Shown here one piece after another: positions 1,728-62,267 of a stretch of 64,000 nt of DNA. Positions within the stretch are counted from its first letter, which is position 1; each line of letters begins with the position of its first letter. Source of the DNA: a virus; IMG/VR virus record IMGVR_UViG_3300037454_000146, positions 32,001 through 96,000 of that record, one strand, 5' to 3'. The notes beneath the pieces are model-generated. The model saw only the letters and a list, made by a program, of their open reading frames with translations. It searched no databases and was not told where the DNA came from. The position numbers and the translations under genes are program-made.

Positions 1728-1900
1728 CGAGAATTGAAACCTTCACAGGTATTTCTTACTGCTTCAACGTATATGCTTTTGTGGTTATAAAACACACTAC
1801 TCACAAGTTCTTGTACACTCCACAGTCGTAAATTCCCGAAATAGCCTTCGGTACATACTTATATTTTGCTTTCATTATGCAATTGTATAAGTTATTGCAT
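1728..1900 (-). ncRNA. Putative TnpB omega/right-end RNA scaffold region
   Basis: In known TnpB systems the guide RNA spans the 3' end of tnpB and the right element end. Here a 147-nt ORF-free tail follows the tnpB stop and contains the hairpin CCGAAGGCTATTTCGG followed by GAATTTACGACTGTGGAG. Extent and guide position were not determined. Confidence 0.35.
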
Positions 1901-3035
1901 CTCTAAGATTCAGACTGGCATTAAAATCCCTATCTGCTACATACCCACATTCACAGTGATAAATTCGGTCTGATAGTTGCAGCTTTTTCTTGATATGACC
2001 ACAACAATGACACGTTTTAGATGAGGGATACCATCTATCTACAATTCTCAATTCAATACCATTTTCAAAGCATTTAAATGCTAATTTAGTTCTAAACTGA
2101 TAAAACTTTTGAGATGCTACGGCTTTTGCAATATGTTTGTTTTTCATCATCCCTCTTACATTCAAATCTTCAATAGCAATATAAGATGGTTTGGTTTTCA
2201 CTATCTCGGCTATTACTTTATTAATGTAATCGGTGCGGATGTTATTTAACTTATTATAAAGCCTTTGTACTTTTAGCTTTTGTTTTTGTATATTTTTTTG
2301 AGTAGCCCCTCCTTTCTTATTTTTATCATATTTACGAGAAAGACACCGTTGTTCTCTACGCAGACGTCTTTCAATCTTTTTGATTTTTTCTGACTTGTTA
2401 ATATTTGCGTATAATTGACCATTTGACAGAATCGCGAAATCCTTTAAACCCAGATCAATTCCAACACCTTCGTTGTTGCAAACTGTAGGTTCTATAGAAG
2501 GAATATCTACGAGGACAGACACATAATATCTACCAGCTTCAACAGATATAGAGCCGCTTTTAATAATTAGTCCGCTTCGAGTTGTTGGAATATATCCTTT
2601 CTCTTTAACGCGCACCCATCCTAATGTTGGAATATTGATTCTATGTCTTTCACATCTACAATCTTTTGAATTATTCTTCACAAAATACATTGTGACATTA
2701 GATCTCCCTTTCTTCTTAAAACGAGGATAACCACTTCGATTTTTAAAAAACCTCATAAAAGCTGCATACCCATTTTCAATAGATTTTTTAACTGCTTTTG
2801 AATATACTTCTTTAATCCATTTTTTATCAGAATTGTTTGGGATATACTCATTGTTCAACCATACACTAAATTCCTTGCCCGTAACAAAGTCTTTGTTTTT
2901 AAGATATAGTTCTTTATTGTAAGCAAGATAAAAATTATAAATAAATCTACAGGTATTAATCGTTTTGTCTATTTTATTCTTTTGCTCTAATGTAGGATTG
3001 ATTTCCGTCTTAAAACTCTTAAATATTTTCATCAT
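1875..3035 (-). CDS. tnpB: TnpB RNA-guided endonuclease (RuvC-like, OrfB_IS605 with Zn ribbon)
   Basis: 386 aa. RuvC motifs are GIDLGLKDFAILSNG (D), IAIEDLNVRGM (E) and ADRDFNASLNL (D). The zinc ribbon is CHCCGH...YHCECG. N-terminus is INPTLEQKNKIDKTINTCRFIYNFYL. Confidence 0.9.
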   Translation of the reverse strand: MMKIFKSFKTEINPTLEQKNKIDKTINTCRFIYNFYLAYNKELYLKNKDFVTGKEFSVWLNNEYIPNNSDKKWIKEVYSKAVKKSIENGYAAFMRFFKNRSGYPRFKKKGRSNVTMYFVKNNSKDCRCERHRINIPTLGWVRVKEKGYIPTTRSGLIIKSGSISVEAGRYYVSVLVDIPSIEPTVCNNEGVGIDLGLKDFAILSNGQLYANINKSEKIKKIERRLRREQRCLSRKYDKNKKGGATQKNIQKQKLKVQRLYNKLNNIRTDYINKVIAEIVKTKPSYIAIEDLNVRGMMKNKHIAKAVASQKFYQFRTKLAFKCFENGIELRIVDRWYPSSKTCHCCGHIKKKLQLSDRIYHCECGYVADRDFNASLNLRDAITYTIA

Positions 3036-3178: not shown

Positions 3179-3598
3179 TTACTTCATTTCGGAAAGGAAA
3201 CGCTCAAACTTCTTGCGAGTGCGCTCATCAGGAGCTTTCTCCATGAGTTCTTCTATCTCGTCCATAAAATCCTCTTTTGCGTCATCTCTGCTGTAGCCAC
3301 GAGCGTATGAACCGCGTCTTGCATATGAGCCACGACCATTAGAACGACCACCTCTATTTTCCATAGAGTTGTCATAATAATATCTGCCGCCCATATAGTA
3401 GCCACTGTGTCCGTCCTCCGCCTCTATCATAGCGATAGTGGTCTTGAGAGACTTCATTGTGTGAGTGAGCTTATCAAGATACTCCAAATCGCCAGCACTC
3501 AGTTCTCCGCCAGAGCCATTAATCTTCTCGTTTGCATTTTCAAGTTCCTTTGAGACCGTCTCACAAAGGTCATACAGGGTATCTAACTTCTTATCCAT
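3179..3598 (-). CDS. Hypothetical protein with Gly/Arg/Tyr/Ser-rich low-complexity centre
   Basis: 139 aa. A helical N-terminus is followed by GYYMGGRYYYDNSMENRGGRSNGRGSYARRGSYARGYSRDD and then an acidic helical tail. An RBS is present. Confidence 0.6.
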   Translation of the reverse strand: MDKKLDTLYDLCETVSKELENANEKINGSGGELSAGDLEYLDKLTHTMKSLKTTIAMIEAEDGHSGYYMGGRYYYDNSMENRGGRSNGRGSYARRGSYARGYSRDDAKEDFMDEIEELMEKAPDERTRKKFERFLSEMK

Positions 3599-4119: not shown

Positions 4120-5010
4120 TTAAAATGAGCCGTTGCAACCGCAAGCGTTAGTGCAGCAGTTAGGATTCTGCACCATATAAGCAGGGATAGCACGAGGAGC
4201 TACATACTGCTCTACCTCGTTAGCGAGATTTCTCTGACCAAGCTGGATAGCCGCCGTCTGAACGTCCTGTGAAGCCTGTCCACGAGCGAACATAAGCTCT
4301 GAGCGAAGCTGTGCGATGATGTCATTCTTGCTCTCAATCTTGTCTGAGCAAAGCTGATCCTTGATGCTCTGAATACCGCTATTAAAGGCTGTGAGAAGCG
4401 CATTAGTATTCTGAGCGTCGGCGGTTCTTGTTGCACATCCTTCCTGTGCGAGTGTGTACTTTACGTCAGCTGTAGCCGCACGATTCTCGCAACAGCAAGT
4501 AGCAAGCTGAGACTGAATAGCATTTAAGCCCTGAGAATTAGCAGTCTGAGCCGCATAACTTCTTTCAAGGTTTGCTATTTCGTTGCCATAGAGCTGCTGT
4601 GCAAGTGCGTTCTGTGCACCAAAGACTGAATTGTTCACGCCGTTAAAGCCGTTAGCAAGGTCGTACCTCATATCGCCGCAGCACTGACAAAGCTGAGTGC
4701 TAAGTCCCTGTATGCCGTCACGAATAGAAGTCACATTGCTATTGAGCATCTGGTCACGGAATCCGTCGTTGATGTTCTGGCTGTTGTTGAGCCACGGATA
4801 AAGACCAAAGCCGTCTGCCATACCCATTCCCATCATTGCGCCATAACCGCCGCCAAAGCCACCAAAGCCGAAGCCGCCGTTACAGAGTGCAATAAGGAAC
4901 AGTATGCCAAGCCAACTGTCTCCGCCACCAAAGAGTCCGTTGCCACCGCCGTAACCACCAGTAGGAGATACGAGCATTGTTGTGTCCATTCCGTTTTCTG
5001 TAAGAGCCAT
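4120..5010 (-). CDS. Hypothetical Gly-rich / Cys-rich protein
   Basis: Start at MALTENG follows the RBS AAGGAGGG. The N-terminus is Gly/Phe/Met-rich and hydrophobic (GGYGGGNGLFGGG...GGFGFGGFGGGYGAMMGMGM). The centre is Q/N/A-rich and helical. Cys clusters include QLCQCCGD, ATCCCEN and the terminal NPNCCTNACGCNGSF. Confidence 0.6.
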   Translation of the reverse strand: MALTENGMDTTMLVSPTGGYGGGNGLFGGGDSWLGILFLIALCNGGFGFGGFGGGYGAMMGMGMADGFGLYPWLNNSQNINDGFRDQMLNSNVTSIRDGIQGLSTQLCQCCGDMRYDLANGFNGVNNSVFGAQNALAQQLYGNEIANLERSYAAQTANSQGLNAIQSQLATCCCENRAATADVKYTLAQEGCATRTADAQNTNALLTAFNSGIQSIKDQLCSDKIESKNDIIAQLRSELMFARGQASQDVQTAAIQLGQRNLANEVEQYVAPRAIPAYMVQNPNCCTNACGCNGSF

Positions 5011-5160
5011 AAAGCCCTCCTTTCTCCCCATAACTTTTAGGGGTTGAGCGTTCACATCCGTATGTGTGAACGGGTTTTATATATCAAGGCGGAATTGCCT
5101 TAATACCATTAGAAAGGTAAAGACTATAACTCATTGTGAGCCATAGCTTTACACTATAAC

Positions 5161-5370
5161 TCACTTCCTACCAAGCATTGCGTTTACACGCCCTTGAAGC
5201 ATTGGCGGGATTCTGCCGTTATCGGCTAAGTATTGTACAATTTGTTGTGGAGTTGTAAGCTCCTTTGGGATATTCATTCCCGTAAGATATTGCATAGGGT
5301 TCTGCATAAACTGCTGATATAATGCGTTCATATCAGGCTGTTTCTGCACAAAAGGATTACCCATCACCAT
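5161..5370 (-). CDS. Hypothetical small protein
   Basis: 69-aa ORF co-oriented in the operon; its start overlaps the upstream gene end. Confidence 0.5.
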   Translation of the reverse strand: MVMGNPFVQKQPDMNALYQQFMQNPMQYLTGMNIPKELTTPQQIVQYLADNGRIPPMLQGRVNAMLGRK

Positions 5371-5767
5371 TCAACTCCTTTACTATTTTCTGCATATCAT
5401 CAATAATTGTTTTATAAGATTCAAACTCTGTCTTTGTCATATACTCCGACATATCTGGCACAACTGCGGTAGTTGTTTCTTGTTGCTGTTGCTCCTGTGG
5501 AGTGGTTCTTTTAACCATGTCGTATATTTCAAATACGGGCGGTTCAAGAATTGACATTCCAACAGATTTCTTATAAAGGCAGCCTTCGTTTTCATTTATG
5601 AAGTTTGTTGTTGTATTAGGCGGAGTGTTCCACCTATACGCAACATCTTGTGAAGGCACATTTATAAAAGTTGTAATTTGCGATTGTTGCATTGGCGGAC
5701 TCGTAGGATATTGTTGCCCGTAAGAATTATATCCGCCAGTAGGGAAGTAAGGAACTCCATAAGCCAT
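5357..5767 (-). CDS. Hypothetical protein (Pro/Gln/Tyr-rich N-terminus)
   Basis: 136 aa, tightly packed against the upstream gene (stop/start adjacency at 5767/5768). Confidence 0.55.
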   Translation of the reverse strand: MAYGVPYFPTGGYNSYGQQYPTSPPMQQSQITTFINVPSQDVAYRWNTPPNTTTNFINENEGCLYKKSVGMSILEPPVFEIYDMVKRTTPQEQQQQETTTAVVPDMSEYMTKTEFESYKTIIDDMQKIVKELNGDG

Positions 5768-14762: not shown

Positions 14763-17700
14763 TTATCTGCGCGGCTTGAATACCTGACTTTCGGTCAGAA
14801 CCGTCTGCATATAGGATTCCATTTGTCTCGCGAATTGCTCCGCGTTCTGTACGTTGGGGAGATTGATTACTGTGCCGTTAAATGTGACCGCGTTTGCCGT
14901 GTCGGATTTCTTGCCCAAATTCTGTGCGATTCGCATATTGCCCGTAATAGCAGAAGGTGTTAGCGCGGGAGAGTTGTGTAGCGCATTATAGAGCTTTGCC
15001 GCATCGGTCGAATTGAGCACGAGCTCGGGGCGTTGCTTTGTTCCGTGGAGCATTGCAAGTCCCGTATAAGTATTCACTCCGCCGTCTGCGTATGCGCCTA
15101 TTTTTCGTAAATATGCGTCCCAAGCCGAATTAACATCTTGATTATACTTAGACAAATCTTCTTTAACGATAGCTCTCCTAATACCATATTCGTCTACCTC
15201 TAACCTATCAAGTCTCTTTTCAATATCGTCTATGCGGTTGTCATAAGAAGAATAGTCCATACCCGCAACAGACTCATTGAGTTCATCTTGGGCTTGAGTT
15301 AATTTGCTTATGATAGTCGAATACTTTTTATAAAACGAATCAAGATTTCGAGCCATATCGCCCTCGTCACTACCCATGCTTAATGAAATATTGTAGGCTT
15401 CTTTATAAAAATCTTGAACCGAGTCTTTGGCTTCTTTCGCAACATTTTGCACCTTAGATTTGTATTCTTGCCATTTCTTAATTTCTTTATCAACGGCTGC
15501 AATCTGTTTGTTTGAGGCTTCGATACTCTTATTTACAGCCACCATTTCTACATTAGAAACACGACTGAGCTCGTCGGCATACTTATCATATTCCGTTTCG
15601 TAATCATTAAGAATATCTAAGTCCTGCTCGGCAATCTTATCACGCCAATCAGCACCAAGTATCTGCTCGGCAAGTCGCTCATCTTCTGCTTTTTGCCTTT
15701 TTTGAGTAACACCTTCCCATTGTTTCAGATATTCCTCTAAGACCTTAATATCTTGATTAGCTTGCGCCTTATCTACTTCCCGTTGAGCCTTATCAATATC
15801 TGACTTCTTAGCCTCATACTGCCAACCGCCCGCTTCTGTATAGGTACGAACTTTCTTGTTTTTAGCATTTTCGAGATTTGCAAGTTTCTCCGCGAGGTCA
15901 AGAGCTTCTTCACGCTCCTCGTTCTGCTCCTTAATTGCTTCAATCTGTTCCTTGATAGCGTTTTGAACGGTATTTGCAACCTTTTCGTAATTCTCAGTAA
16001 TTTCTTCGAGAGCGTCTTTCTGTTCCTGCAAGACCGTGAGTTGCTCCTCCATTGCTTCTTTAGAGGCTTCAATAGCAGATTTTTCAGCTTCATAACCCTC
16101 TATAACGGAATCAATTTTGTATTCCTGTGCCTTTAAAAGAGTGTCCGCTTCTTCATTGAGTTCTTTAGTAAGATTGTTAAGCGCTTGCTGACGGTCTACT
16201 GTGTCACCAAGACTTCCGTTGTAATATTGCAACACAACATTATTGCGATCCCAATCCTCTCCAATCTCAACAACTTTTTGTTCTGCCGTCTCTAACTGAT
16301 TCTGCAATTCAACGTATTGATAATAGTTAGGATTGTGAGAGTTTTTACGCATTTCAGACCACGTGTTCATTTCAGCCCGAATTGAAGCTACTTCTTCTTG
16401 CGCGGCTTTTTTAGCATTAAGCAACTCAATTTGTTTGAGCTCTATAGATTGAATTTGTTTTTGAATATAAGCATCTTTCAGGTCAATAAGTTGTTGCTCT
16501 GTGACTTTAAATTGTCCACTAATACTATCAAAACTTGCAGGACTTAAATATTTAGTGCCTAATTCGTCATCCAACTTATACAAGTCCATAAATGCATCTC
16601 TGTCAATACCGTTGCCATTAGCAAGCGTCTGAAGTGCTGACTTCATAGCGTCGATATTCTTTAACGTCGTTTTCTTTAATTCGTCATAGCTTTCATACCA
16701 AGCCTCAGACATACTTTCGATTGCTGTAATTGCACCAGAAGCTCCTGTTTCAAAGGAAGAAAACAATGAATCTACGTCTTGTTGCAAAGAAGGATAGTCT
16801 GCCCCAATTTTATTTAGCTCTTGCCTAATCTCATCAAGGCTTTGCGCCGCTTGTCTCTTTTTTATAGTGGTATTATCACCCGCAATAACGTGATTTAATT
16901 CTTTGGCTTTATCAATCAAAGAATTGTAATTATCTAATACGTCTTGTGGAACTTCAAACGAATTATAATATTTGGTTTGACGCTCCATTTGGTCGGCATC
17001 GGCTTTATCAACTTCATATTTTGCTCTTGCCGCTACGTATTGCGCCATTAAGCCCTTATAAATATCTTCGTCATATCCGTCGATTTCTTTATAAGTGTCG
17101 GCTATTTTTTTCCAGCCCTCAACTTGCTCCTCTAAAGTACCCATAACTGCAATGTCAGCTTCTTTGCCCCACATATCAGTAGCTATATGGTCAAAAGCAA
17201 CCCCTGTGTCATGGAACAGCTTTAACATATTAGACAAGTCGGTTGTTGTATCGGCTTTTATCTTTGCACGATAAAATTGAGTTGAATCAGAATCGGCAAT
17301 TCTTGCATTTTTGTCAGTACCCTCAAGCGATTCAACGGCTTGTTTGTACCTCTTTTGATTTTCGGTATCGAAAATGTAATCTTCAACCTTTTCTTTTTTT
17401 AACTGTCTTATCTTTTCAATTTCTTCCGATAATTTGCCATTAACCAAATCAATACCCTCGGCTTCTTCGCCATATTTGGATATTAATTCGCCTTGCATTG
17501 AAGATAATTCCTTTTGGATTCCAACTAAATCATCTGTAGAAGTATAAAGTTGAAGGTATCTATCCATTATTGAATCTAACGAATTGATTTCCTCGCCCAT
17601 AGCCTCTATAGATTGATGACCAGAATCGCGCAACTCTTTTGCGGCTTCAGCAGCTTTTTCTTCTGCGTGATACCACTCGTCAATTTGTTTAACAACTAAT

Positions 17701-17996
17701 GATAAAGCATAACTTAACCCAAATGATATAGCCGCATTAAGAGCTGCGGTTGCAACTTGTAATGCAATAGTCTTAGCACGAGCAACCACGAGGGATTTGA
17801 CATACCCGCCCATTGTTGCTTCTGCACCATTAAGCCCTGATAGATAATTTTTTAGTCCGACATTCGAGCCGCTAATCTCATCATCAAAAGCCTCTTGGAC
17901 ATATTTAGCTTTATTAAGAGAATAGTTATAATCGTCTAAACTCGTTGTTATCTTCTTTATATCATTGCCAAATTTACTAATGTCAGAACCGAATAT
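14763..17996 (-). CDS. Tail tape measure protein, exon 2 (3' part)
   Basis: Coiled-coil-rich product that continues the hydrophobic and helical TMP sequence (IFGSDISKFGNDIKK...). The first 8 nt AUAUUCGG pair perfectly with the intron guide sequence (P10). The ATG reported by the ORF track is the last 3 nt of the intron. Confidence 0.85.
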   Translation of the reverse strand: MFGSDISKFGNDIKKITTSLDDYNYSLNKAKYVQEAFDDEISGSNVGLKNYLSGLNGAEATMGGYVKSLVVARAKTIALQVATAALNAAISFGLSYALSLVVKQIDEWYHAEEKAAEAAKELRDSGHQSIEAMGEEINSLDSIMDRYLQLYTSTDDLVGIQKELSSMQGELISKYGEEAEGIDLVNGKLSEEIEKIRQLKKEKVEDYIFDTENQKRYKQAVESLEGTDKNARIADSDSTQFYRAKIKADTTTDLSNMLKLFHDTGVAFDHIATDMWGKEADIAVMGTLEEQVEGWKKIADTYKEIDGYDEDIYKGLMAQYVAARAKYEVDKADADQMERQTKYYNSFEVPQDVLDNYNSLIDKAKELNHVIAGDNTTIKKRQAAQSLDEIRQELNKIGADYPSLQQDVDSLFSSFETGASGAITAIESMSEAWYESYDELKKTTLKNIDAMKSALQTLANGNGIDRDAFMDLYKLDDELGTKYLSPASFDSISGQFKVTEQQLIDLKDAYIQKQIQSIELKQIELLNAKKAAQEEVASIRAEMNTWSEMRKNSHNPNYYQYVELQNQLETAEQKVVEIGEDWDRNNVVLQYYNGSLGDTVDRQQALNNLTKELNEEADTLLKAQEYKIDSVIEGYEAEKSAIEASKEAMEEQLTVLQEQKDALEEITENYEKVANTVQNAIKEQIEAIKEQNEEREEALDLAEKLANLENAKNKKVRTYTEAGGWQYEAKKSDIDKAQREVDKAQANQDIKVLEEYLKQWEGVTQKRQKAEDERLAEQILGADWRDKIAEQDLDILNDYETEYDKYADELSRVSNVEMVAVNKSIEASNKQIAAVDKEIKKWQEYKSKVQNVAKEAKDSVQDFYKEAYNISLSMGSDEGDMARNLDSFYKKYSTIISKLTQAQDELNESVAGMDYSSYDNRIDDIEKRLDRLEVDEYGIRRAIVKEDLSKYNQDVNSAWDAYLRKIGAYADGGVNTYTGLAMLHGTKQRPELVLNSTDAAKLYNALHNSPALTPSAITGNMRIAQNLGKKSDTANAVTFNGTVINLPNVQNAEQFARQMESYMQTVLTESQVFKPRR

Positions 17997-18034
17997 CATA
18001 TATTAAAAATCGTTTTTTTATTTGATTTTTAACT

Positions 18035-18063
18035 TGACAAATTAGAAAATATTTGTTATAATA
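18035..18063 (+). promoter_or_regulatory. Sigma-A type promoter for the zinc-ribbon membrane protein gene
   Basis: TTGACA, a 17-nt spacer ending in TG (TGTTATAAT, extended -10), then TATAAT, 25 nt upstream of the ATG at 18088. Confidence 0.6.
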
Positions 18064-18087
18064 TAATAGAAGAAAGGGGTTGATGTT

Positions 18088-18603
18088 ATGAAAAATAATC
18101 TTATCAACGAAATTAAAAAATATTCAATCGCAGATTTAAAGATTATATTAGACACTCAACAAGATTTATATACCATTGACGAGATGAACATTATTAGAGA
18201 TTATTATGAAAAGTGTAAAAATGAATACATATCTAAGCACACACCAAAGCTAATCCCTTGCCCTAAATGTGACGCGCAAAATGATTTTAATTCTACAACT
18301 TGCACATATTGTGGTCAACCTATAAACAACAAACCTTATTTAGATAGAATATGCAACGAAATGCTTGGGATTATAACCGCAGAAGATGTGAAAGACGACA
18401 ACGATGATTATAATGGCAAATCCCCCTCGTTCTTATTCCAGTATATAATCAGCTTCATAATACCTCTTATTGGTTTAATTGTAGGTGGCGTGTTTATTGC
18501 AAGCGATGACGAAGATAAGAACGCGTCGGGCAAGATTTGTATTGCGATTAGCATTATATCTATCATTGTAAGCACCACTCTATATGTTTTAATATCAAAA
18601 TAA
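18088..18603 (+). CDS. Zinc-ribbon membrane protein (possible superinfection-exclusion/moron product)
   Basis: 171 aa with the RBS AAAGGGG. Has a CPKC...CTYCG zinc ribbon and two C-terminal transmembrane helices (FLFQYIISFIIPLIGLIVGGVFIA; ICIAISIISIIVSTTLYVLI). It is encoded antisense to the intron. Confidence 0.7.
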   Translation: MKNNLINEIKKYSIADLKIILDTQQDLYTIDEMNIIRDYYEKCKNEYISKHTPKLIPCPKCDAQNDFNSTTCTYCGQPINNKPYLDRICNEMLGIITAEDVKDDNDDYNGKSPSFLFQYIISFIIPLIGLIVGGVFIASDDEDKNASGKICIAISIISIIVSTTLYVLISK

Positions 18604-18607
18604 CCTC

Positions 18608-18636
18608 TTGACAAAATCTCTTGCTTGTGCTATAAT
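18608..18636 (+). promoter_or_regulatory. Consensus sigma-A promoter of the type III TA operon
   Basis: TTGACA (18608-18613), 17-nt spacer, TATAAT (18631-18636). Confidence 0.7.
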
Positions 18637-18665
18637 AACCTTGCGGAGCAATCCGCACCGTGTCG

Positions 18666-18755
18666 TGTCGCTCCCGATTAGCGTCTAATAAATCATCGGA
18701 TATGAATGTTTGTCGCTCTCTGATATGCGACTAATAAATCGTCAGACTCAAATCT
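18666..18755 (+). ncRNA. Type III antitoxin RNA: two tandem 45-nt repeats
   Basis: R1 (18666-18710) is TGTCGCTCCCGATTAGCGTCTAATAAATCATCGGATATGAATGTT. R2 (18711-18755) is TGTCGCTCTCTGATATGCGACTAATAAATCGTCAGACTCAAATCT. They share TGTCGCTC and CTAATAAATC blocks and lie between the promoter and the toxin gene, as in ToxI/antiQ/CptI. Confidence 0.7.
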
Positions 18756-18756
18756 A

Positions 18757-18783
18757 AAGCCTTGCCTAATCGCAGGGCTTTAC
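18757..18783 (+). terminator. Intra-operon hairpin/terminator between antitoxin RNA and toxin gene
   Basis: AAGCCUUGC / GCAGGGCUU form 9 bp with one U.G pair. That pair is valid only on the plus-strand RNA and would be C.A on the other strand. A short U run follows. This matches the ToxIN-type layout. Confidence 0.55.
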
Positions 18784-18798
18784 TATTAGGAGTATTTT

Positions 18799-19251
18799 AT
18801 GATTACAGGTCACTTCTATTTTCTCAAGCCAGAATATACACAACAATTTGCAAATCCAAAGTTTATGAATAACAATGAACATAACCGCCCGTATTTCTGT
18901 GCCTTTACAGAGGATAGCCACATCTTTTGGCTTGTGCCGATTTCCTCTAAAGTGGATAAATTTGAACGTATTTACAACAATAAAGTTGGTCGTTATGGTA
19001 AGTGTGACACCATTGATTTCTGCCACATCCTCGGCAGAAAGAAAGCGGTTTTAATCCAGAATATGTGTCCTGTAACACAAGAGTTTATTTTGAATGAGTA
19101 TAACGATCCGCATGGTAAGCCAGTACAACTTTGTGAGAAAGTGCGCAAGCGCATTACTCATAAAGCAAAGAAAGTCCTCGTTCTTCACCGCAAAGGCGTT
19201 GACCTGTTGTTTGGGGACGTTCTAAAAATTAAAAAAGAATTATCAAAATAG
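18799..19251 (+). CDS. Type III toxin, ToxN/AbiQ/CptN-family endoribonuclease
   Basis: 150 aa with the RBS AGGAG. Family-like blocks: FYFLKPEY..., NRPYFCAF, WLVPISSKVDKF, AVLIQNMCPV (compare PLSSxK and NMIPV in ToxN/AbiQ). Preceded by repeat RNA and a terminator. Confidence 0.75.
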   Translation: MITGHFYFLKPEYTQQFANPKFMNNNEHNRPYFCAFTEDSHIFWLVPISSKVDKFERIYNNKVGRYGKCDTIDFCHILGRKKAVLIQNMCPVTQEFILNEYNDPHGKPVQLCEKVRKRITHKAKKVLVLHRKGVDLLFGDVLKIKKELSK

Positions 19252-19308
19252 TTGAATATCGTACCCCTAATTCCATTCACTGAGACTGAATTATGAGGTG
19301 ATGAAAAA

Positions 19309-19413
19309 ATGAGTTTTGTTTATAAACCCGTACACGTTAGAGCATATTATCGTATACGTTACGGCGCACTGGAATATGTGCGTGAACACTATCGCTCATA
19401 TCCCATAAGATAA
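19309..19413 (+). CDS. Possible 34-aa basic Arg/Tyr-rich peptide
   Basis: MSFVYKPVHVRAYYRIRYGALEYVREHYRSYPIR with a good RBS (GAGGTGA). However, it lies entirely inside an intron RNA domain closed by a 15-bp helix on the opposite strand, so it may be fortuitous. Confidence 0.25.
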   Translation: MSFVYKPVHVRAYYRIRYGALEYVREHYRSYPIR

Positions 19414-19848
19414 TGGGAGTTCACCAGTAATTTGGTCAGGATTCAAACTCTTTAATCCAGTGGACGGAACTAAGGGTACGATTTTTCTGCTTTCTCCACG
19501 CTTGCAGTAGCGCAAAACAATAGGGGAGAATCCTCTTTGAAACCAACGCATTTCTGCGCCTATGGACTATATCTTTGTGGTGTTACGCCACAGCTTCTTT
19601 TAGTCTCTGAACCTTCCCTTGCGGGCTTGGCTGCTGATTAACCGTTAAACAACCTTTAGCTTTTGAGCATGGGTTATCCGCATAATTTTTTCTGCTTTCG
19701 CAACATTCACGCTTGCAACCAGTGGTTGCTACGTTGTAGTCTACGCGGCTTTGGGTACTTCCAGCAATTAAAAAGCTCATTTGTGAGGGACGTATCACCC
19801 CGCAACAATTTCGTAACAATGCGAGGTTAGGCATATTCGGTTAGGTTT

Positions 19849-22362
19849 ACCTATCCCTTTGAAGCTGCCGACAGCGGCGAGCCCTGTAAGTAAAGTCGGG
19901 AGTGTCCCGAACTTGTCGATGATTTTTGTCAGTATCTCTAAAAACTCTTTGGCGGTGTCTACCACGCCCTTAATAAAGTCGCTACCTACGACCGTCTGAG
20001 CGAGGTCTTGGTATGCCGCCTTTAAGCTGTCAATAGAATACTGAATCGACTTCGCGTATTCTTCTTGCTCGCGACGTGCAGAGCCCGCAGAACCCTCGGC
20101 GGTCTTGTAAACCTTTTCAAGCAACTCGCCGTTTTCGAGGATTGCCGCACCTATATTCGACTGACGTTTGCCAAATAGCTGCTCAAGAACTGAGCTTCGC
20201 GAGAGGTCATCAAGTTGACCCCACACCTTAGAGATTTCGAGAAGAATCTGATATGTTGATTTATATGTTGTGTCGTCAAGCTGAATGTCTACGCCTGTAA
20301 GCGCAAGCATCTGCTGTCTGAGCTTCGATATATTTTCAGCCGCACCCTCTGCATCCTCACCAATCTGTTCAAGCTCTGTCTTGGTTGAACGGAGACGAAG
20401 TGATACGGTTTTGATGCCCTGTCCGACAGTGGTCGGGTCTTGGGCGACAGTGTTTGCCGTGGTGATAAGCGCTATACTTTCGCTCAGAGTGTTATTTCCA
20501 GCCGCTAACGCGGAAGCAGAGCGTTTGAGAGCCTCACCTATACCACCAGAAGATATTGCGAAGTTATTGCCGACTTCGTTAAATTTGTCTACAATTTCTA
20601 TCGAGTTCTGCGCCTCTATATTAAAGGCTTTCATCGTAGACACTAAATCTTCTGCCGCTTGTGTTTCAGTTATGCCGTCGCCGACATTCTGATAAAGTAT
20701 CGCAACCTTACCGAGCTCCTCCGCGTCGGGCAAAGATTCACCCAGTCGTGCAAAGGTGCTTGTGGCGTTGATTACGTCGGTTATGCTCGCACCGAGCTCT
20801 TTGGCGGTATTGCCCGCAGACTTCTGAAATTTTCTGAAATCTTCTTCGGTCGCTTCAGTAACCTTGCGAAGTTCAACCATTGCCGTGTCAAGCGCCGTTA
20901 CCTCGTTTACCATATCTCTAATCTGCCTCTTGACAAAATTAAAGACCATATTCGCGGTAATGTAGCTCGACATTAGTTTGAATGAATTTAAGAATTTACC
21001 CCAAGCACTTTCACCTTTGAGTCCTGCGGCTTCAGCCTCTTTACCAAAGATGCGGAACTCCTCGCCAAGATGTTTAACTTCACTCGCGCTCAAATCCGCG
21101 CCTTTCGCCATACGAGATGTCAAGTCCGCCCACTTGGAGGCGAAAGTTGTGCCGTCAGACATTTGCTTGGTAGAATCTATGGCTCTCTTATTAGCAGAAG
21201 CATACGCTTGCATATCTGCTGAGAGTTTCTTAATCTTATTAGATAAAGAAGTTTCTCGACTAAGAGCCTTTTCTTCCTTTTGAGCCGCCTTTAAACCATT
21301 GGTAATATCTTGAATGGCTTGGCTTACTTCTCCATATTTCTTACTCCATTCTAAGCCACGACCAGATTCACTTTCAATCCGCTGCAACTCTACGAGATTT
21401 TTACTTGCATTTGCAAGATTGTCACCCAAAGACGATTTCGCGGACTCATCTGATAGAGCATCTATATCTTTTCTTAACGCATTAAGCGTATTATCAAAAT
21501 TTTTAGCTTTGTTAATTGCGTTATCAAATATATTAAAGGAACTTCCAGTCGATTTTAGCGACGTTCCGATATTAGCCGCAGCCGTCTTGAGATTATCAAG
21601 TGCCTTCTGTGCGGATTCCACAGAGCCAACGCCAGACTCTAAATCAATAATGGCGTTACGAGCTGTGGTCAGCGGCTCAATTAAACCACTTTCGATTGAT
21701 TTGTGGCTTGCCTCGAAATTAGCAAGCTCTTTACTTAGTCTTGCTAAATCTTGCTGTATTTTGCCAACGCCCTTGTCAGAATAAGAACCACCAATATACT
21801 CAAACTTTTGACCAGTAGAATCAAGCAAGAAATTAAGTTCTCTAACCTCGCCAGAAGCAGCCTGTATTCTCGCAATTATCTTATTTATACTATCCGCCGA
21901 CTCTTGATCGTTATATTTGCCTGTAACGGTAACAGTACCCAATGATGATAGGCGACTTTGTATTGTAGCCATTGTACGCTCGGCGTTGATTATCCCGTCT
22001 GCATTTGTCGCAACCTTAAACGGCTCAACAAACCTACTATCTAAATCCGCAAGCGTTTTCTTTAAAGTGAGAACTTTGTTTGTTACAGTTTCGACACTCT
22101 TAGCAACATTCTCGATGTTTTGCGCCGATTGTCCAGTACCAGCCTGTATTTCTATTTTGGGAATATCTATTTTCAGTTTTTTAGATATTTCGCTAACTTG
22201 ATTTTGCAGAGTAGCCAAACTGTTTGTGTCGAGACTACAAGCTATTGATAATGCTTTGTTGGCATCCAATCGCTTTTTAACTTCTTCTAAATCTTTTTCA
22301 ATTGTACTGACGGTCTTGGGTATGTCCAAACTCGCCACTATTTCAATTCTGTTATCGTCCAT
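19849..22362 (-). CDS. Tail tape measure protein, exon 1 (5' part)
   Basis: Exon 1 is 838 codons and ends ...AAVGSFKGIG at a codon boundary. It contains a TP901-type TMP core (FNEVGNNFAISSGGIGEALKRSASALAAGNNTLSESIALITTANTVAQDPTTVGQGIKTVSLRLR). The ORF-track extension beyond 19849 (KPNRICLTSHCYEIVAG) is intron read-through. Confidence 0.85.
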
Positions 22363-22379: not shown

Positions 22380-22868
22380 TTAATACCAGTCAGATATATC
22401 TACATCCCATGAAACTGTTACGCCCCAACGGTTGCTTGCATTGAATTTTTGCACTCCTTTGCTAATATAATCATATCCGTCAAAACGTCTAAATCTATCT
22501 TCTTCGCCAGTATAACCATGCCAACACCAACCGTTTAGCATAAGCACATTAACTGGACTTCTATGGTCTTTGTTAAAGTTCCACGCCCACACATTGTTGC
22601 TAAATTTGAGGGACAACTTAATACGGTTGTCCTTTATTCTTGCCTGTATGAAATCTTCGGCGTATAGCGCAGTCCGCAGGTTTGCACCATCAGGTCTGCG
22701 CTTATAATAACTTGGGCTGTAACTGTCATACATGAAGTCAATCTCGTCTTGTATACAGTCATAAAGATAATCCACAGCTTCTTTGAGATTTTGCTCTACC
22801 GTTTTACCATTAGCAAGTTTTGCCTTTTTAATAACTATGCGTTTAAGCTGTTCTGCAATAGAAGCCAT
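22380..22868 (-). CDS. Hypothetical protein between chaperone-like gene and TMP
   Basis: 162 aa with its own RBS (GAGGAG). Confidence 0.6.
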   Translation of the reverse strand: MASIAEQLKRIVIKKAKLANGKTVEQNLKEAVDYLYDCIQDEIDFMYDSYSPSYYKRRPDGANLRTALYAEDFIQARIKDNRIKLSLKFSNNVWAWNFNKDHRSPVNVLMLNGWCWHGYTGEEDRFRRFDGYDYISKGVQKFNASNRWGVTVSWDVDISDWY

Positions 22869-22880: not shown

Positions 22881-23426
22881 TCACTTCTTTTTAGTTTTCT
22901 TTACGCTTTGTTCTACAACAGCCTCTACAAACTCCTGCTTGTCTACCTTGTCGAGCTTTTCAAGCACTTCCTTAATATCGGCAAGATTCTGTGTGTTATC
23001 CGTATTAATTATTGCCGATAAGTCAGCACAAAGCTTGTCAAATGAGGTCTGCCTTGTTGCTATGATATAGTCAATCTGCCTGTCAATCGCAGACTCCACT
23101 TCGCCCCAAACAGGCAACTTCACAACGTCGGCTTCAATCTGCGAATACCAGTTGCCGCCCTGCGTTGTCTTGAATATCTCGTTTACATCAGCATCTTCAG
23201 GCTCAATGTCGGTCATGTACTTGATGATAGAGTAGCGACGAGCTATCTCGCGATTTTCTGCGTGATATTCACCGTCCACGAATGAGGACTGCGCTACAGT
23301 CTGCACGATTGACGCAAATGTGTCTACGTCAAGATAGGTCTTGATTGTGACAGGTGCGCTATTAATGCGCTTGGTTGTGTTCTTGAGGGCAAAGTTCTTG
23401 CCGATAACGTCTGTAAGTTTACTCAT
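22881..23426 (-). CDS. Tail assembly chaperone-like protein (by position)
   Basis: 181-aa acidic protein with a Lys-rich tail, upstream of the TMP. No slippery site was noticed. Confidence 0.45.
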   Translation of the reverse strand: MSKLTDVIGKNFALKNTTKRINSAPVTIKTYLDVDTFASIVQTVAQSSFVDGEYHAENREIARRYSIIKYMTDIEPEDADVNEIFKTTQGGNWYSQIEADVVKLPVWGEVESAIDRQIDYIIATRQTSFDKLCADLSAIINTDNTQNLADIKEVLEKLDKVDKQEFVEAVVEQSVKKTKKK

Positions 23427-23490: not shown

Positions 23491-24033
23491 TTAGATTTGA
23501 GTCTCAACTGCATATCGCCCGATAGCGATAGCGTCAGATACGTCGTCTACTTGTATATCAAGATTATAATAATCGTTTACTTTCTGCCTTATATCTTCTT
23601 TTCGTTCTGGTCGCTTTACACCTCTGCCGTATTTGCCCCACGCCGTTATCCACTTTGATTCCTCTATAATGGTATACTTAACATTGTGTTTGTGGGCAAT
23701 GTGTGCTATGAAGCCTTGCAGTCTTGCAAGCGACCTAAACCCTTTCGGATTTGCATTTTCAAATATTTCCTCAAACCATATCTCGTCAGGCTTGAACTTC
23801 TCAATAAGCTTTTCGAGTTGGTCTGTTATCGCCGTTATTCGGAGTAGAGTAGTGCCATAATCCGCTTCGGGCATAATAATACTGATAAGGTGCGGTTCTT
23901 CTTCTACTCGCAACTCATCAGCTCGTTTACTCATTTTTGGTTTTATTAGGCAATAATCTTTTAGCTTGCCATTAACAAAAAAGCCAGCCCCCGTTGCGGA
24001 AGTTGACTGGTCTATGCTCAAAACTCGTTTCAT
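23491..24033 (-). CDS. RuvC-like Holliday junction resolvase
   Basis: Start at MKRVLSIDQSTSATG follows the RBS AGGAGG. Acidic catalytic motifs: SIDQS (D), WFEEIF (E), DVSDAIAIG (D). Confidence 0.8.
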   Translation of the reverse strand: MKRVLSIDQSTSATGAGFFVNGKLKDYCLIKPKMSKRADELRVEEEPHLISIIMPEADYGTTLLRITAITDQLEKLIEKFKPDEIWFEEIFENANPKGFRSLARLQGFIAHIAHKHNVKYTIIEESKWITAWGKYGRGVKRPERKEDIRQKVNDYYNLDIQVDDVSDAIAIGRYAVETQI

Positions 24034-24075
24034 ATTTCCTCCTATAAAAAAGCACACCCGAAGGTGCGCTGTAAA

Positions 24076-25167
24076 TTATTCTGCGTATTTCCAGATGCAA
24101 TTGGCATATATTTCTTTCTTATTCTGACAACATAGTGACACATAATAAGAATTATATCCATTTTGTTTTATTTCTGAGAGCGATGCATATTGATTTAATA
24201 AAACATTATTCATATCATATTGCTCATATTTAATAGCGTTCTGTTGCGATTGCAATTCTTGATAATATAAACGGTCATTCTCCAAATTTTCGGTCGATTC
24301 ATTTTCGTATCTCCACACATAACCAAAAGCAGTATCAACCATTCTCCTACAACAAGACGAAATCAGCGATCTGTTTGTATAACCAGTTTTATCTTCAATT
24401 TCTCTAATTGAATTAAAACTACAAATTAGATTCATACCCATATCGTATTGATTAATTTTTAATCTTTGAGCCTTTTCATTAGCATAATCCAAGCGTTTTT
24501 GTAACAACTCATCAGAATAATCTTCCTCTTTAATCCATATAAATCCTTTATAAGAACGCTTAATACCACTTGCTACCGCTGACACACAGCTATGAATATA
24601 GCCATCTTGTTCAGCCTCTGTCAATGAATTGTATTTATGAAGTATTTCTCCACTATCTTTATCTATTTTATATATAGGACGAATACAACGTTCTTTATTT
24701 CTTTCAGCAATTCCCGTATTATCTTTTGTATAATCAGTTCTTTTCTTTCGAGTGCCAGAAGCCCAAGATTCTTTTTGAGCTTTTCTCATATTATTACAAG
24801 CATCAGCAGGAATTGGAACTCCCAAATGAGCCATTGATTGCCTAAGTCGTGTTTCCTCAGTAATTTCTTTATTTAAATTTCCGCCTTTTTCAATATTAAA
24901 TCCTCTTTTAAGATTTGTAGAATCGTAAAAAGCAATTAATTCAATTTCTTTTGTTTCAGCTTCTTCTTTTGATAAATTATCATACAATATCTCCGAAACT
25001 ATACAATCCCATCCGTTTTTTAATATGAATCTGAAGAAGTGAATATTGTCTTTATACCCTCGACCTCTATCAAACCTTCTTTTCGGGTTTTTCTGACAAG
25101 TGACTCCGATATATACTCGACCATCTGGGACAGTGTGTTTATACACTTTATATTTCTTTTCTTCCAT
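24076..25167 (-). CDS. Free-standing GIY-YIG homing endonuclease with NUMOD3 and three NUMOD1-like DNA-binding repeats
   Basis: The GIY-YIG region is KVYKHTVPDGRVYIGVT...RRFDRGRGY...EEAETKEIELI...GFNIEKGG. NUMOD3-like: EETRLRQSMAHLG. Three repeats are of the type YNSLTEAEQDGY...KGFIW, FNSIREIEDKTGY...FGYVW and YASLSEIKQNGY...ANCIW. Confidence 0.9.
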   Translation of the reverse strand: MEEKKYKVYKHTVPDGRVYIGVTCQKNPKRRFDRGRGYKDNIHFFRFILKNGWDCIVSEILYDNLSKEEAETKEIELIAFYDSTNLKRGFNIEKGGNLNKEITEETRLRQSMAHLGVPIPADACNNMRKAQKESWASGTRKKRTDYTKDNTGIAERNKERCIRPIYKIDKDSGEILHKYNSLTEAEQDGYIHSCVSAVASGIKRSYKGFIWIKEEDYSDELLQKRLDYANEKAQRLKINQYDMGMNLICSFNSIREIEDKTGYTNRSLISSCCRRMVDTAFGYVWRYENESTENLENDRLYYQELQSQQNAIKYEQYDMNNVLLNQYASLSEIKQNGYNSYYVSLCCQNKKEIYANCIWKYAE

Positions 25168-25237: not shown

Positions 25238-25266
25238 ATTATACCACTAATTTTATGCTCTGTCAA
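25238..25266 (-). promoter_or_regulatory. Dedicated promoter of the GIY-YIG endonuclease gene
   Basis: Minus strand reads TTGACA (25266-25261), a 17-nt spacer ending in TGG, then TATAAT (25243-25238), which gives an extended -10. Confidence 0.55.
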
Positions 25267-39692: not shown

Positions 39693-40721
39693 CTATTTTA
39701 TATCAGCAATACCCTTATTTTCTTGCTGTATAATGCCATCTGCGCTAAAGTATTTACCAAAGTCATCAGCCGCAGAAGCATCGTTGTAGTGGCTAATCAT
39801 TTCTACAGACTCCCACTTGAAAAATTCTTTTATAACTTCTGACGGTATGTTCATTTGAACGAGCTCGGTACACAATGCGTGTCTAAGAGCATGAAAATAG
39901 AAAGGACAACCGAGAATCTGAGTAAACTCATCTTTCCAATTCTCAATATCTGTTCTCTGTTCCCAAACGTCGCCGCGCTTTATAACAAGAACCCACTCAC
40001 TGTCAATACCTAATTCTTCACGCTTCTTGCGCCATAAATCCATATAGGTATCAACTTTATTCATTACATACTTGTTTATCTGTTTGCCACGCACACCACG
40101 ACCTTTGGCTCTTACCTTATCTGTTTTATAAAGGCAACCAAACTCTAAGTGGTCTGTGTTAAAGTATTCCATTTTCATTTGAAGCAGTTCTGCCTTACGC
40201 ATACCTGAATAAGCAAGAATTGCAATGCAAACAGCCCTATCATATTCTTCACGTTTTACAAGTTCATCAAGTAACTTCTGCACCTGTTCTGTAGAAAGCA
40301 CAGTCTTTTCTCTGACGGCTTCATTTACAGGCGACTCAATTTTCTTGATAATACTGCGGTAATCTTCGTAACCTTCTTCCTCGTCCAATATGTTCTCGAT
40401 ATAATTGGAAAGGGAAGAAATTGTGGATTTAACTCGCCTTATCCTACGAGGACTCCATTTCCACACATTAAGAGCATGATTCTGAAATCTCGCAAAGTCA
40501 CGTTTACTAATCTTGATAAATTCCTTATTGGCGTTTTCCTCTAAATTCCAAACAAAGAATATTTCAAGGTCAGAATTATATGCAAAAATAGTCTTAGGAC
40601 TTCTGTCAATTGAAGCAAGGTAATCAAGAAAGTCTTTGCTCAACTGAACATTTTCGGGATTAATCTGCTTAATCTTTTCATCGCTTGTAATCTTGTTGTA
40701 AACCGTTGATCTGCCTTCCAT
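39693..40721 (-). CDS. int: Tyrosine recombinase / phage integrase (internal copy)
   Basis: Has an N-terminal SAM-like core-binding domain. Catalytic residues are in SGMRKAELLQM (R), FHALRHAL (H-x-x-R) and MISHYND (Y). Confidence 0.85.
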   Translation of the reverse strand: MEGRSTVYNKITSDEKIKQINPENVQLSKDFLDYLASIDRSPKTIFAYNSDLEIFFVWNLEENANKEFIKISKRDFARFQNHALNVWKWSPRRIRRVKSTISSLSNYIENILDEEEGYEDYRSIIKKIESPVNEAVREKTVLSTEQVQKLLDELVKREEYDRAVCIAILAYSGMRKAELLQMKMEYFNTDHLEFGCLYKTDKVRAKGRGVRGKQINKYVMNKVDTYMDLWRKKREELGIDSEWVLVIKRGDVWEQRTDIENWKDEFTQILGCPFYFHALRHALCTELVQMNIPSEVIKEFFKWESVEMISHYNDASAADDFGKYFSADGIIQQENKGIADIK

Positions 40722-51447: not shown

Positions 51448-51476
51448 ATTATAACACTAATTTTCTACCTTGTCAA
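51448..51476 (-). promoter_or_regulatory. Conserved extended -10 promoter
   Basis: Minus strand reads TTGACA-aggtagaaaattagtgT-TATAAT. A near-identical cassette recurs at 53007-53035. Confidence 0.6.
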
Positions 51477-53006: not shown

Positions 53007-53035
53007 ATTATAACACTAATTTCTTACTTTGTCAA
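53007..53035 (-). promoter_or_regulatory. Conserved extended -10 promoter for the leftward operon
   Basis: Minus strand reads TTGACA-aagtaagaaattagtgT-TATAAT. Confidence 0.6.
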
Positions 53036-62255: not shown

Positions 62256-62267
62256 GGAGTGGTTGCT

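Follow-up and report, generated by a model that had tools for sequence, protein, structure and literature searches.

Comparison with an intron-less allele and with related introns shows that the tape-measure protein (TMP) gene of this virus is interrupted, from 19848 to 17997 on the minus strand, by a group I intron predicted to be self-splicing. On its opposite strand the intron carries two independent cassettes with their own promoters, one encoding a putative zinc-ribbon membrane protein and the other a type III toxin-antitoxin (TA) module of the CptIN family. Probably, its role is that of a neutral carrier, holding moron-type cassettes inside an essential gene. Coordinates refer to the window, i.e., the whole stretch of 64,000 nucleotides that was analysed. 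The intron and its exons are laid out as follows.

17997-19848, minus strand: group I intron in the TMP gene, 1852 nt, first base A19848, omega-G at 17997
19849-22362, minus strand: TMP exon 1, matching Pfam PhageMin_Tail (E=2.5e-20)
14763-17996, minus strand: TMP exon 2, the in-frame continuation (IFGSD...)
19828-19840, minus strand: internal guide sequence, read from the sequence
19544-19830, minus strand: ribozyme core P2-P9, matching Rfam RF00028 (60.7 bits)
19487-19543, minus strand: peripheral domain of the ribozyme on the 3' side of P9, made up of two nested sense-strand helices

The intron span given in the initial annotation is supported by the agreement of P1, P10, the Rfam match, and the intron-less allele. 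T19849 is the last base of exon 1 and exon 2 starts at 17996, while the listed exon-1 open reading frame (19795-22362) runs 18 codons into the intron before reaching a stop. Exon 1 ends in ...KGIG, matching the intron-less relative L001 (...KGVG followed by IFGD...), and the L001 allele, AAAGGCGTAGGT joined directly to ATATTTGGT, equals exon 1 and exon 2 fused, base for base. In P1, GCCTA (19832-19828) pairs with TAGGT at the end of exon 1, with a U.G pair at the 5' splice site; P1 of the L003 intron is compensated (GUGGGU with GCUCAC). In P10, CCGAATAT (19840-19833) pairs with ATATTCGG, the first bases of exon 2. P10 measures 8–9 bp in 12 introns, with the compensatory variants CCAAATAT/ATATTTGG and TTTGAATAT/ATATTCAAA plus a G.U intermediate. 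G17997 is the sole G in the intron whose following 8-mer can pair with the guide sequence (an 8-bp P10). P10 is the only pairing established that would join the distant omega-G to the core; a candidate long-range pairing that would link the 3' tail to the peripheral domain (GUUUUG/CAAAAC) is not universal and was set aside.

The ribozyme itself is well supported by covariation. The Rfam Intron_gpI model (gathering score 50) matches 19830-19544 on the minus strand over its full length (1–253) at 60.7 bits (E=6.3e-13). RNAalifold on 12 introns gave 85 pairs, 36 of them with compensatory changes, and a GC-to-CG exchange in P7 is split 7:5 across the introns. In the peripheral domain, 96.1% of cells are paired, with five compensatory pairs (0/500 shuffles), and an invariant G.U pair is functional as a pair on the sense strand only. 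The ribozyme occupies the first ~362 nt of the intron, from 19848 to about 19487, where the core and the covarying peripheral domain stop; the end at ~19260 claimed earlier was too far downstream. The type-2 core of the relatives scores 44 bits in Rfam, yet has 36 compensated pairs in the family alignment, and the L003 intron goes unseen by Rfam at E<=0.1, with P1, P10, and P7-like elements readable by eye. At the DNA level, the core is closest to introns from Firmicutes phages, for example those of Staphylococcus, Brochothrix, and Lactococcus. A related ribozyme in the Enterocloster phage CB457P1 comes with a sense ORF annotated as 'intron-associated endonuclease 1'.

The two opposite-strand cassettes, each with its own promoter, take up the ~1.45 kb of DNA that separates the ribozyme from the 3' splice site. 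The cassette beside the 3' splice site consists of a promoter and the gene for the zinc-ribbon protein, and the ribozyme-side cassette runs in the order promoter, cptI, hairpin, cptN, and orf34.

18034-18062, plus strand: promoter of the zinc-ribbon gene, TTGACA-17-TATAAT with TG, the -35 element lying 37 nt from the 3' splice site
18088-18603, plus strand: ORF of the zinc-ribbon protein, 171 aa, two predicted C-terminal transmembrane (TM) segments
18608-18636, plus strand: promoter of the cptIN operon, TTGACA-17-TATAAT with TG
18642-18657, plus strand: 5' leader hairpin of the cptI transcript (GCGGA-GCAA-TCCGC), conserved in most compared loci
18667-18756, plus strand: cptI antitoxin, two 45-nt repeats (18667-18711 and 18712-18756), an H-type pseudoknot being possible in each
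18756-18781, plus strand: palindromic hairpin between cptI and cptN, read from the sequence
18799-19251, plus strand: cptN toxin, 150 aa, matching NCBIfam NF047359 and PDB 4RMO
19309-19413, plus strand: orf34, 34 aa, basic and aromatic, ribosome-binding site GAGGTGA, belonging to the cptIN cassette

The zinc-ribbon membrane protein gene and the complete type III TA operon that had been described on this strand were recovered in full, every element lying where it had been placed. The promoters, earlier called near-consensus, turned out to be perfect: both match TTGACA-17-TATAAT at 12/12 positions, carry the TG of an extended -10, and are of the sigma-A type. Six perfect sites of this kind occur in the 64-kb window against 0.03 expected from shuffles, and the two in the intron are the only ones on its plus strand. 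Minus-strand genes of the phage use perfect promoters of this type as well, and the cargo may therefore be no more than a set of early lytic genes. The intron has no credible sense ORF or endonuclease gene, as had been proposed: its longest sense ORFs (86, 83, 68, 53, and 51 aa) gave no Pfam match at E<=1, and no LAGLIDADG, GIY-YIG, HNH, or His-Cys ORF was found in it.

The zinc-ribbon protein has no informative homologue. Its zinc-ribbon Pfam matches are weak and below the cutoff, and two hydrophobic segments lie at its C-terminus. It is 47% identical to the product of the same-position gene in L025; no relatives were found in IMG/VR or in PHROGs, and a set of 5.8 billion proteins returned only the protein itself. 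Its best PADLOC match was to a homing-endonuclease model and was non-significant (E=0.015). The small protein at the other end of the cargo, orf34, matches phrog_21154 (E=2.6e-10); L002 and the L007 intergenic cassette encode the identical protein, and its gene agrees with that of L007 at 104 of 105 nt. The gene was absent from the earlier list of cargo genes.

The TA module has the toxin family, tandem repeats, palindromic terminator, and upstream promoter of a CptIN locus. CptN scores 167.8 bits against NF047359 (E=1.4e-49), for which the equivalog cutoff is 90 bits, and matches the CptN structure 4RMO at E=7e-21; by these matches it is a member of the endoribonuclease toxin family. A match to the AbiQ model at the locus was weak (E=3.5e-4). 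Known cptI loci have tandem repeats of 40–48 nt in 1.9–3.4 copies, and a palindromic terminator ahead of the toxin gene is a criterion for type III loci (PMC3401426). Judged by its sequence and place, the hairpin at 18756-18781 is the attenuating terminator typical of such loci. The repeats in cptI share only about 70% of their sequence, which is why Tandem Repeats Finder did not detect them. The H-type pseudoknot is kept in a comparison of 16 repeats drawn from nine loci, with 91.9% of cells paired and five compensatory pairs (0/500 shuffles). The term 'defence-type', applied earlier to the cargo, fared less well: the zinc-ribbon protein has no informative homologue, and the two cptIN loci tested so far did not make E. 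coli resistant to phage (PMC3401426). For CptIN, the label is one that we infer. A tblastn search with CptN against 50,697 GenBank phages gave no match.

Antisense cargo is, on comparative evidence, a property of the intron family rather than a one-off insertion. Loci were gathered blind to cargo, through the TMP junction or a DNA pattern of the guide sequence, and all relatives compared are metagenomic sequences. In IMG/VR, matches to a 16-mer of the guide sequence proved to be chance in nine of ten cases, and ~20 metagenome loci with the variant TCAAATATGCCTA were discarded as they had neither ribozyme nor TMP context. Thirteen distinct complete introns of 790–1852 nt were found at the TMP site, and every one (13/13) has one or more antisense genes under a consensus or near-consensus promoter of their own, in variable combinations; the twelve introns related to that of the window thus argue that the family works as a carrier of accessory genes. 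CptIN is present in 11 of the 13, always adjoining the ribozyme and in the same orientation, with CptN identities of 50–99% among introns and one pseudogenised copy (a decayed cptN in L028). The introns of L003 and L078 carry only a membrane-protein or lipoprotein gene. At least five unrelated families of membrane proteins or lipoproteins are represented by the second cargo gene. In the other introns, a consensus or near-consensus antisense promoter lies close to the 3' splice site, the exception being that of L031, which is without a second gene. Related genomes were also checked for a cargo-free or endonuclease-bearing copy, and neither an empty intron nor a sense endonuclease occurs among the 13 at this site. 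Other introns in the same TMP genes contain sense ORFs, either endonuclease-like or TnpB, as in L028, where the TMP gene has an intron with a TnpB gene. A megablast search with 17000-20900 against the 50,697 GenBank phages returned no match; no isolate-based relative was found in that set.

The same cassette also occurs outside introns. It is intronic in the window and in L002 and intergenic in L007, L008, L035, and L009. In L007, L008, and L035, it lies between homologues of the window genes at 22881-23426 and 22380-22868; in L009, it lies beside a different gene, a homologue of the RuvC-like gene. The homology between the window and the L007 intergenic cassette sets in at 19486, and the TMP genes of L007 and L035 are uninterrupted at the intron site. 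In line with what defines a moron, the cassette is an autonomous unit with its own promoters and a presence and position that vary among relatives, and its occurrence outside introns means that the function of CptIN does not need the intron. The intergenic cassettes are antisense to late genes in the three checked in detail; therefore, antisense coupling, if there is any, would not be peculiar to the intron. The 'safe harbour' put forward in the initial annotation has strong comparative support in the variable antisense cargo of all 13 introns and in the intergenic copies of the same cassette in relatives with an uninterrupted TMP gene.

We propose that late transcription would lead to the intron and its cargo being spliced out together, giving one continuous TMP of ~1,915 aa. 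The predicted ligated junction reads ...AAAGGGATAGGT joined to ATATTCGGTTCT..., and the predicted spliced product across the exons reads AAAGGGATAGGT joined to ATATTCGGTTCTGAC. The cargo promoters would be used by host RNA polymerase, either in a lysogen or in early infection, and independently of the late operon. Expression in the lysogen is a guess; the window encodes two tyrosine recombinases, and a search of it for a repressor or other clear lysogeny module found none. The cargo would be moron-like, with CptIN serving as an addiction or abortive-infection module and the zinc-ribbon membrane protein having a role in the cell envelope, with superinfection exclusion as one possibility. Independently expressed cargo of this kind, inside an intron that is spliced out, would make the intron a neutral landing pad for accessory cassettes in an essential gene. 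The antisense orientation would keep the strong cargo promoters from acting on the tail genes and keep ribosomes off the ribozyme RNA. The endonuclease-free intron probably persists through useful cargo or through free-standing endonucleases encoded elsewhere in the genome.

The cargo could also have a functional tie to the intron instead of riding in it passively, given that all 13 introns are loaded and 11 of them carry CptIN. In this unlikely reading, the TA module is coupled with the intron or with late transcription. In one version, RNA from late TMP transcription and the excised intron, being complementary to cptI and the cptN mRNA, would lower the antitoxin supply and free CptN at a set point of the lytic cycle, with host shut-off or timing as the outcome. 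Alternatively, addiction would replace endonuclease drive, the TA module penalising intron loss in place of the selfish drive of a homing endonuclease. Consistent with such a tie are the prevalence of CptIN in introns collected blind to cargo, its constant ribozyme-adjacent position and single orientation without any empty intron found, the antisense overlap with intron RNA that follows from the layout, and the divergence of intronic CptN lineages down to 50% identity, which suggests a long association. However, four relatives keep the cassette outside introns (L007, L008, L035, and L009), two introns (L003 and L078) make do with a membrane-protein or lipoprotein gene, L028 has let its cptN decay, and none of 21 CptN loci in bacterial genome assemblies has a ribozyme nearby. 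A related but rather doubtful scenario is that this lineage swapped a homing endonuclease for useful or addictive cargo, so that antisense CptIN would double as a retention device and possibly as a late-transcription switch through complementary intron RNA.

Two further readings are far less probable. It is highly improbable that the ribozyme is a relic that does not splice to 17997, leaving the TMP halves as separate genes with the cassettes between them. The in-frame ATG at 17999-17997 directly ahead of exon 2 and the two ORFs annotated by gene callers would fit that reading, but no ribosome-binding site precedes this ATG, and the corresponding triplet in L023 is TGG, so exon 2 cannot start independently there. 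The covariation of P1 and P10 with exon sequences, the 36 compensated ribozyme pairs, and the intron-less allele equal to the fused exons likewise count against a relic. There is also very little to recommend a decayed IStron, a transposon-intron chimera in which morons replaced an IS200/605 or IS607 element and the cargo region is the remnant. The layout does match, with a 5' ribozyme followed by a long stretch of cargo that ends at the 3' splice site (PMC10690162); a TnpB-bearing intron lies in the TMP gene of L028, and the window itself has a TnpB gene with a RAGATH-18 RNA at 1756-3035. However, no transposase fragment was found in the 13 cargo regions (by ORF lists, with Pfam and PHROGs applied to the window and a subset of the relatives' genes), the cargo genes are all antisense whereas IStron genes are sense, and the cassette boundaries are promoters and gene ends with no transposon-end features noticed. 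The neutral carrier is, for us, the reading to be preferred.

Phage group I introns are seen as selfish elements circulated by homing endonucleases. The antisense-cargo family suggests that an intron may instead persist by being useful or addictive to the phage or the lysogen, and that accessory genes can sit in an essential coding sequence at no protein cost. Genes interrupted in this way are split by gene callers, and defence-system finders take no account of the intron context; thus, intron cargo is likely to be overlooked in viromes. CptIN, a type III TA family, gains a defined phage setting in which its biological role can be tested.

The T4 td, nrdB, and sunY introns and the Twort-like phage introns are group I introns with homing endonuclease genes. 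Homing-endonuclease phage introns share with the window intron predicted self-splicing, an essential gene as the site, and an ORF-sized insertion looped out of or 3' of the core; their sense-strand DNA endonucleases drive homing, whereas the window intron has none and all its cargo is antisense (PMC2988022). The TMP introns of Bacillus cereus group prophages are comparable in host gene, in having several insertion sites, and in being related introns with adapted guide sequences, but the parts of that report drawn on here describe no antisense TA or membrane-protein cargo (PMC2504315).

IStrons, which combine a group I intron with an IS200/605 or IS607 element in Clostridia, demonstrate that a group I intron can splice even when over 1 kb of cargo follows the core on its 3' side (PMC10690162). 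They have in common with the window intron a 5' ribozyme, more than 1 kb of coding cargo before a distant 3' splice site, and Clostridia-type hosts. Their cargo is sense TnpA/TnpB with transposon ends at the splice sites (PMC10690162), while the window intron carries antisense, self-promoted cargo unrelated to mobility and has neither transposase nor IS ends. An antisense intron ORF with its own promoter is known from I-DirII, a case from a group I intron of Didymium nuclear rDNA, which differs in being eukaryotic, in having a Pol II promoter, in containing a spliceosomal intron, and in still encoding a homing endonuclease (PMC3073962). The claim that the arrangement has no known precedent therefore holds in part: no precedent was found for a TA module in a group I intron, and the literature searches turned up nothing that connects group I introns with type III TA, CptIN, or morons; long non-endonuclease cargo (PMC10690162) and an antisense self-promoted ORF (PMC3073962) do have precedents.

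The CptIN module resembles described loci in its promoter, roughly two 45-nt repeats, hairpin, ~150-aa toxin, and possible repeat pseudoknot (PMC3401426; 4RMO). All 33 original CptIN loci were classed as chromosomal and none as phage (PMC3401426); the one in the window differs from them in being phage-borne, inside an intron, and followed by an extra 34-aa ORF. Like phage morons (PMC3594210), the cassettes have their own promoter and a hairpin, vary in presence and place, and encode TA, membrane-protein, and lipoprotein functions. Morons are normally described between genes (PMC3594210), whereas the cassettes of the window lie inside a putatively self-splicing intron within a coding sequence.

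Over window positions 1-53,000 almost every gene is on the minus strand, making up a structural and packaging block of the phage in which the tail tape-measure protein (TMP) reading frame is divided.

19795-22362 and 14763-17999, minus strand: the two ORFs of the TMP reading frame
34722-36476, minus strand: terminase, alongside TMP and the amidase

A group I intron core, complete by Rfam, spans 19830-19544 (-) and scores 60.7 bits against a gathering score of 50 (E=6.3e-13). On the minus strand exon 1 ends in ...AAAGGGATAGGT, with T at 19849, and the intron starts with AAACCTAACCGAATATGCCTAACC.... In P1, exon TAGGT pairs with GCCTA (19832-19828) with U.G at the splice site; in P10, CCGAATAT (19840-19833), beside GCCTA, is perfectly complementary to ATATTCGG, whose first base is 17996, directly after G17997. 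Across the intron and the next 96 nt, this is the only G followed by an 8-mer with at least 7/8 pairs to the guide sequence. Joining the exons gives ...GSFKGIG/IFGSDISK... in frame, and the uninterrupted TMP of the intron-less relative L001 reads ...GGIKGVG/IFGDLD..., its DNA being AAAGGCGTAGGT joined to ATATTTGGT, exactly both exon ends fused. Because of P1 and P10, the unique P10-compatible G17997, the in-frame joining and the L001 match, we place the intron at 19848-17997 (1852 nt), as the initial annotation had proposed.

The ribozyme is smaller than the 400-590 nt first estimated. An alignment of 12 introns, all from the same TMP site, was folded with RNAalifold, which predicted 85 pairs, 36 with compensatory changes; at P7 the introns divide 7:5 between G-C and C-G. 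Downstream of P9, a 57-nt domain (19543-19487, -) forms two nested helices with 96.1% of cells paired and 5 pairs with compensatory changes, the observed value being reached by 0/500 shuffles. Its invariant G.U pair would become A.C on the opposite strand, so the domain is assigned to the intron RNA itself. Since this domain ends at 19487 and the homology of a non-intron cargo cassette (contig L007) to the window begins at 19486, the ribozyme measures about 362 nt. The first five intron bases, AAACY (19844-19848), pair with RGUUU directly 3' of P9 (19538-19542, minus strand; alignment A4 columns 1-5 and 339-343) in 11 of the 12 aligned introns, with one mismatch in L067 and a U-A to C-G switch in the window and L023. 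Such a helix would seal off the entire core, with the peripheral domain, cargo and 3' splice site lying outside. The L033 intron (896-2473) is without the peripheral domain 3' of P9 kept in most other aligned introns, and the end of its cptN gene comes almost directly after GTTTCAAA.

The remainder of the intron carries two plus-strand transcription units, and the phage has further promoters of the same type.

18034-18062, plus: promoter, TTGACA-17-TATAAT 12/12, extended -10 TG, preceding the 171-aa protein gene
18088-18603, plus: 171-aa protein, weak below-cutoff zinc-ribbon matches, two C-terminal hydrophobic segments
18608-18636, plus: promoter, TTGACA-17-TATAAT 12/12, extended -10 TG, heading the cptIN operon
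18642-18657, plus: leader hairpin after the second promoter
18667-18711 and 18712-18756, plus: two 45-nt repeats (cptI)
18756-18781, plus: palindromic hairpin between repeats and toxin ORF
18799-19251, plus: 150-aa ORF (cptN), ribosome-binding site upstream
19309-19413, plus: orf34, 34 aa, good ribosome-binding site, after cptN; phrog_21154, E=2.6e-10
25238-25266, 51448-51476, 53007-53035 and 61943-61971, all minus: four further perfect promoters, extended -10 TG

The type III toxin-antitoxin operon read initially on this strand is confirmed. The 150-aa ORF scores 167.8 bits against the NCBIfam CptIN equivalog cutoff of 90 (E=1.4e-49) and matches the solved CptN toxin structure 4RMO (E=7e-21), and the layout agrees with every type III locus feature of Blower et al. 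2012 (PMC3401426). Repeat length, copy number and toxin size fall inside the published CptIN ranges (40-48 nt, 1.9-3.4 copies, ~149 aa; PMC3401426). An H-type pseudoknot is kept in 16 repeats from nine loci, 91.9% paired versus 20-50% in slid controls, with 5 compensated pairs (0/500 shuffles). Database searches returned no informative homologue of the zinc-ribbon membrane protein. The longest sense-strand ORFs of the intron are 51-86 aa, with no Pfam match even at E<=1, which upholds the earlier reading. The promoters, then called near-consensus, are both perfect; six such sites occur in the 64 kb of the window where 0.03 would be expected, the remaining four on the minus strand, and the phage clearly makes use of consensus host promoters for a small gene set. 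One minus-strand promoter, inside the late block, closely precedes the NUMOD1 endonuclease-like gene. In the cargo-strand orientation, the hairpin of ribozyme element P8 (19575-19593, +), followed by CTTCTTTTAG, scores terminator-like and might end cargo transcription short of an antisense run into TMP exon 1; it is not conserved in the relatives' type-2 ribozymes.

Antisense cargo is a constant feature of the introns collected at this TMP site. The spliced TMP junction peptide as query found 30 database proteins, 26 of them exon-1 ORFs stopping shortly after the junction; the tails KLTEYAYLRSVA, KLKPNMPIYAPLQLCA and KPNRICLTS... are one guide sequence in different reading frames. Loci came from the contigs of these matches and from a metagenome scan for the guide-sequence pattern, cargo not being a criterion. 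They yielded 13 distinct complete introns of 790-1852 nt (the window and related loci L002, L003, L023, L025, L028, L030, L031, L033, L063, L067, L074 and L078). P10 is 8-9 bp long in 12 and 7 bp in L003, where P1 is compensated, and it covaries (CCGAATAT/ATATTCGG, CCAAATAT/ATATTTGG, TTTGAATAT/ATATTCAAA) with a G.U intermediate in L030. All 13 contain at least one antisense gene with its own consensus or near-consensus promoter; none is empty or has a credible sense ORF. CptIN adjoins the ribozyme in 11, with CptN identities of 50-99% and a frameshifted copy in L028 (fragments of 49, 75 and 55 aa). A second gene stands beside the 3' splice site in ten; second cargo genes fall into five or more unrelated families, always with a membrane protein or lipoprotein as the predicted product, and such a gene is the sole cargo in L003 and L078. 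L003 is a 160-kb contig of a more distant phage. Its ~980-nt intron (~4661-5640) bears one antisense gene, for a lipoprotein of 154 aa with signal peptide and lipobox cysteine, with a perfect promoter; Rfam gives it no match at E<=0.1, although P1, P10 and P7-like elements can be made out.

Copies of the cassette lie outside introns as well. CptIN is found between homologues of window genes 22881-23426 and 22380-22868 in L007, L008 and L035 (a contig of a metagenome-assembled genome), antisense to late genes and, in L007, together with orf34; in L009 its neighbour is a homologue of the RuvC-like gene 23491-24057. TMP is uninterrupted at the intron site in L007 and L035. The cargo region 19543-18592 shares 95.8% identity between the window and L002, whereas their ribozyme cores have diverged beyond the reach of blastn and their second cargo genes differ. 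From these intergenic copies and the L002 contrast it follows that the cassettes move independently of the ribozyme. A tighter functional link of CptIN to the intron, which its near-constancy in introns (11/13) and the lack of empty ones (0/13) would favour, seems to us improbable. No ribozyme lies close to any of 21 CptN loci from bacterial genome assemblies, most of them Clostridia MAGs. orf34 is identical at 104/105 nt between the window and L007 (6507-6611), while the protein of the adjoining cptN is just 81% identical; either a very recent mosaic exchange or a nucleotide-level constraint would explain this.

Other introns in the same TMP genes carry sense ORFs (DUF4379 zinc-finger, weak Vsr-like and DUF2726-like proteins, one TnpB), and Enterocloster phage CB457P1 has a related ribozyme with a sense ORF annotated 'intron-associated endonuclease 1'. 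In L028 (3764-4891, +; ribozyme-like matches at 1543-1742 and 3241-3480), the TMP gene has three introns, one with a DUF4379 ORF, one with a TnpB (IStron-like) and one with the antisense cargo. In the window, a TnpB gene (1875-3035, -; OrfB_IS605, Cas12f1-like TNB and HTH domains) is directly followed by a RAGATH-18 RNA (1826-1756, -; 73.4 bits), the pair being flanked by a 139-aa gene and the endolysin (amidase) gene 521-1378. No ribozyme lies beside this unit (1756-3035), which looks like an IS200/605-type element with guide RNA in the lysis region. Three free-standing endonuclease-like genes, 24076-25167 (-, NUMOD1), 43668-44474 (-, HNH_3 and AP2) and 60694-61413 (+, GIY-YIG/T5orf172), are candidate trans-acting agents of mobility for this intron, which lacks an endonuclease of its own.

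Our evidence throughout is comparative and metagenomic sequence, and by that measure this group I intron is conserved in structure, its ends are exactly defined, and its non-ribozyme part consists of modular, exchangeable antisense transcription units. The intron would be expected to splice; IStrons show that group I cores followed by >1 kb of cargo on the 3' side are capable of it (PMC10690162). Host polymerase would transcribe the cargo, which may act as morons; no defence function has been demonstrated for CptIN (PMC3401426). Antisense orientation may be favoured because a constitutive sense promoter would drive the tail genes, and because translation would interfere with the folding of the ribozyme. 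Coupling of late antisense transcription to toxin release, if it exists, would hold for the intergenic copies just as well. The phage may be temperate; two recombinase genes are present, and the mixed-strand region at 53-64 kb of the window showed no recognisable repressor.

39693-40721, minus: tyrosine recombinase (Phage_integrase)
62259-63194, plus: tyrosine recombinase (Phage_integrase)

Our full-text literature search found no group I intron described as host to a toxin-antitoxin module, a moron or a defence gene. The nearest precedents are IStrons, I-DirII, an antisense, self-promoted homing endonuclease in a eukaryotic rDNA intron (PMC3073962), and group I introns in Bacillus prophage TMP genes (PMC2504315). 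IStrons carry sense transposase genes, whereas the cargo of the present intron is antisense.
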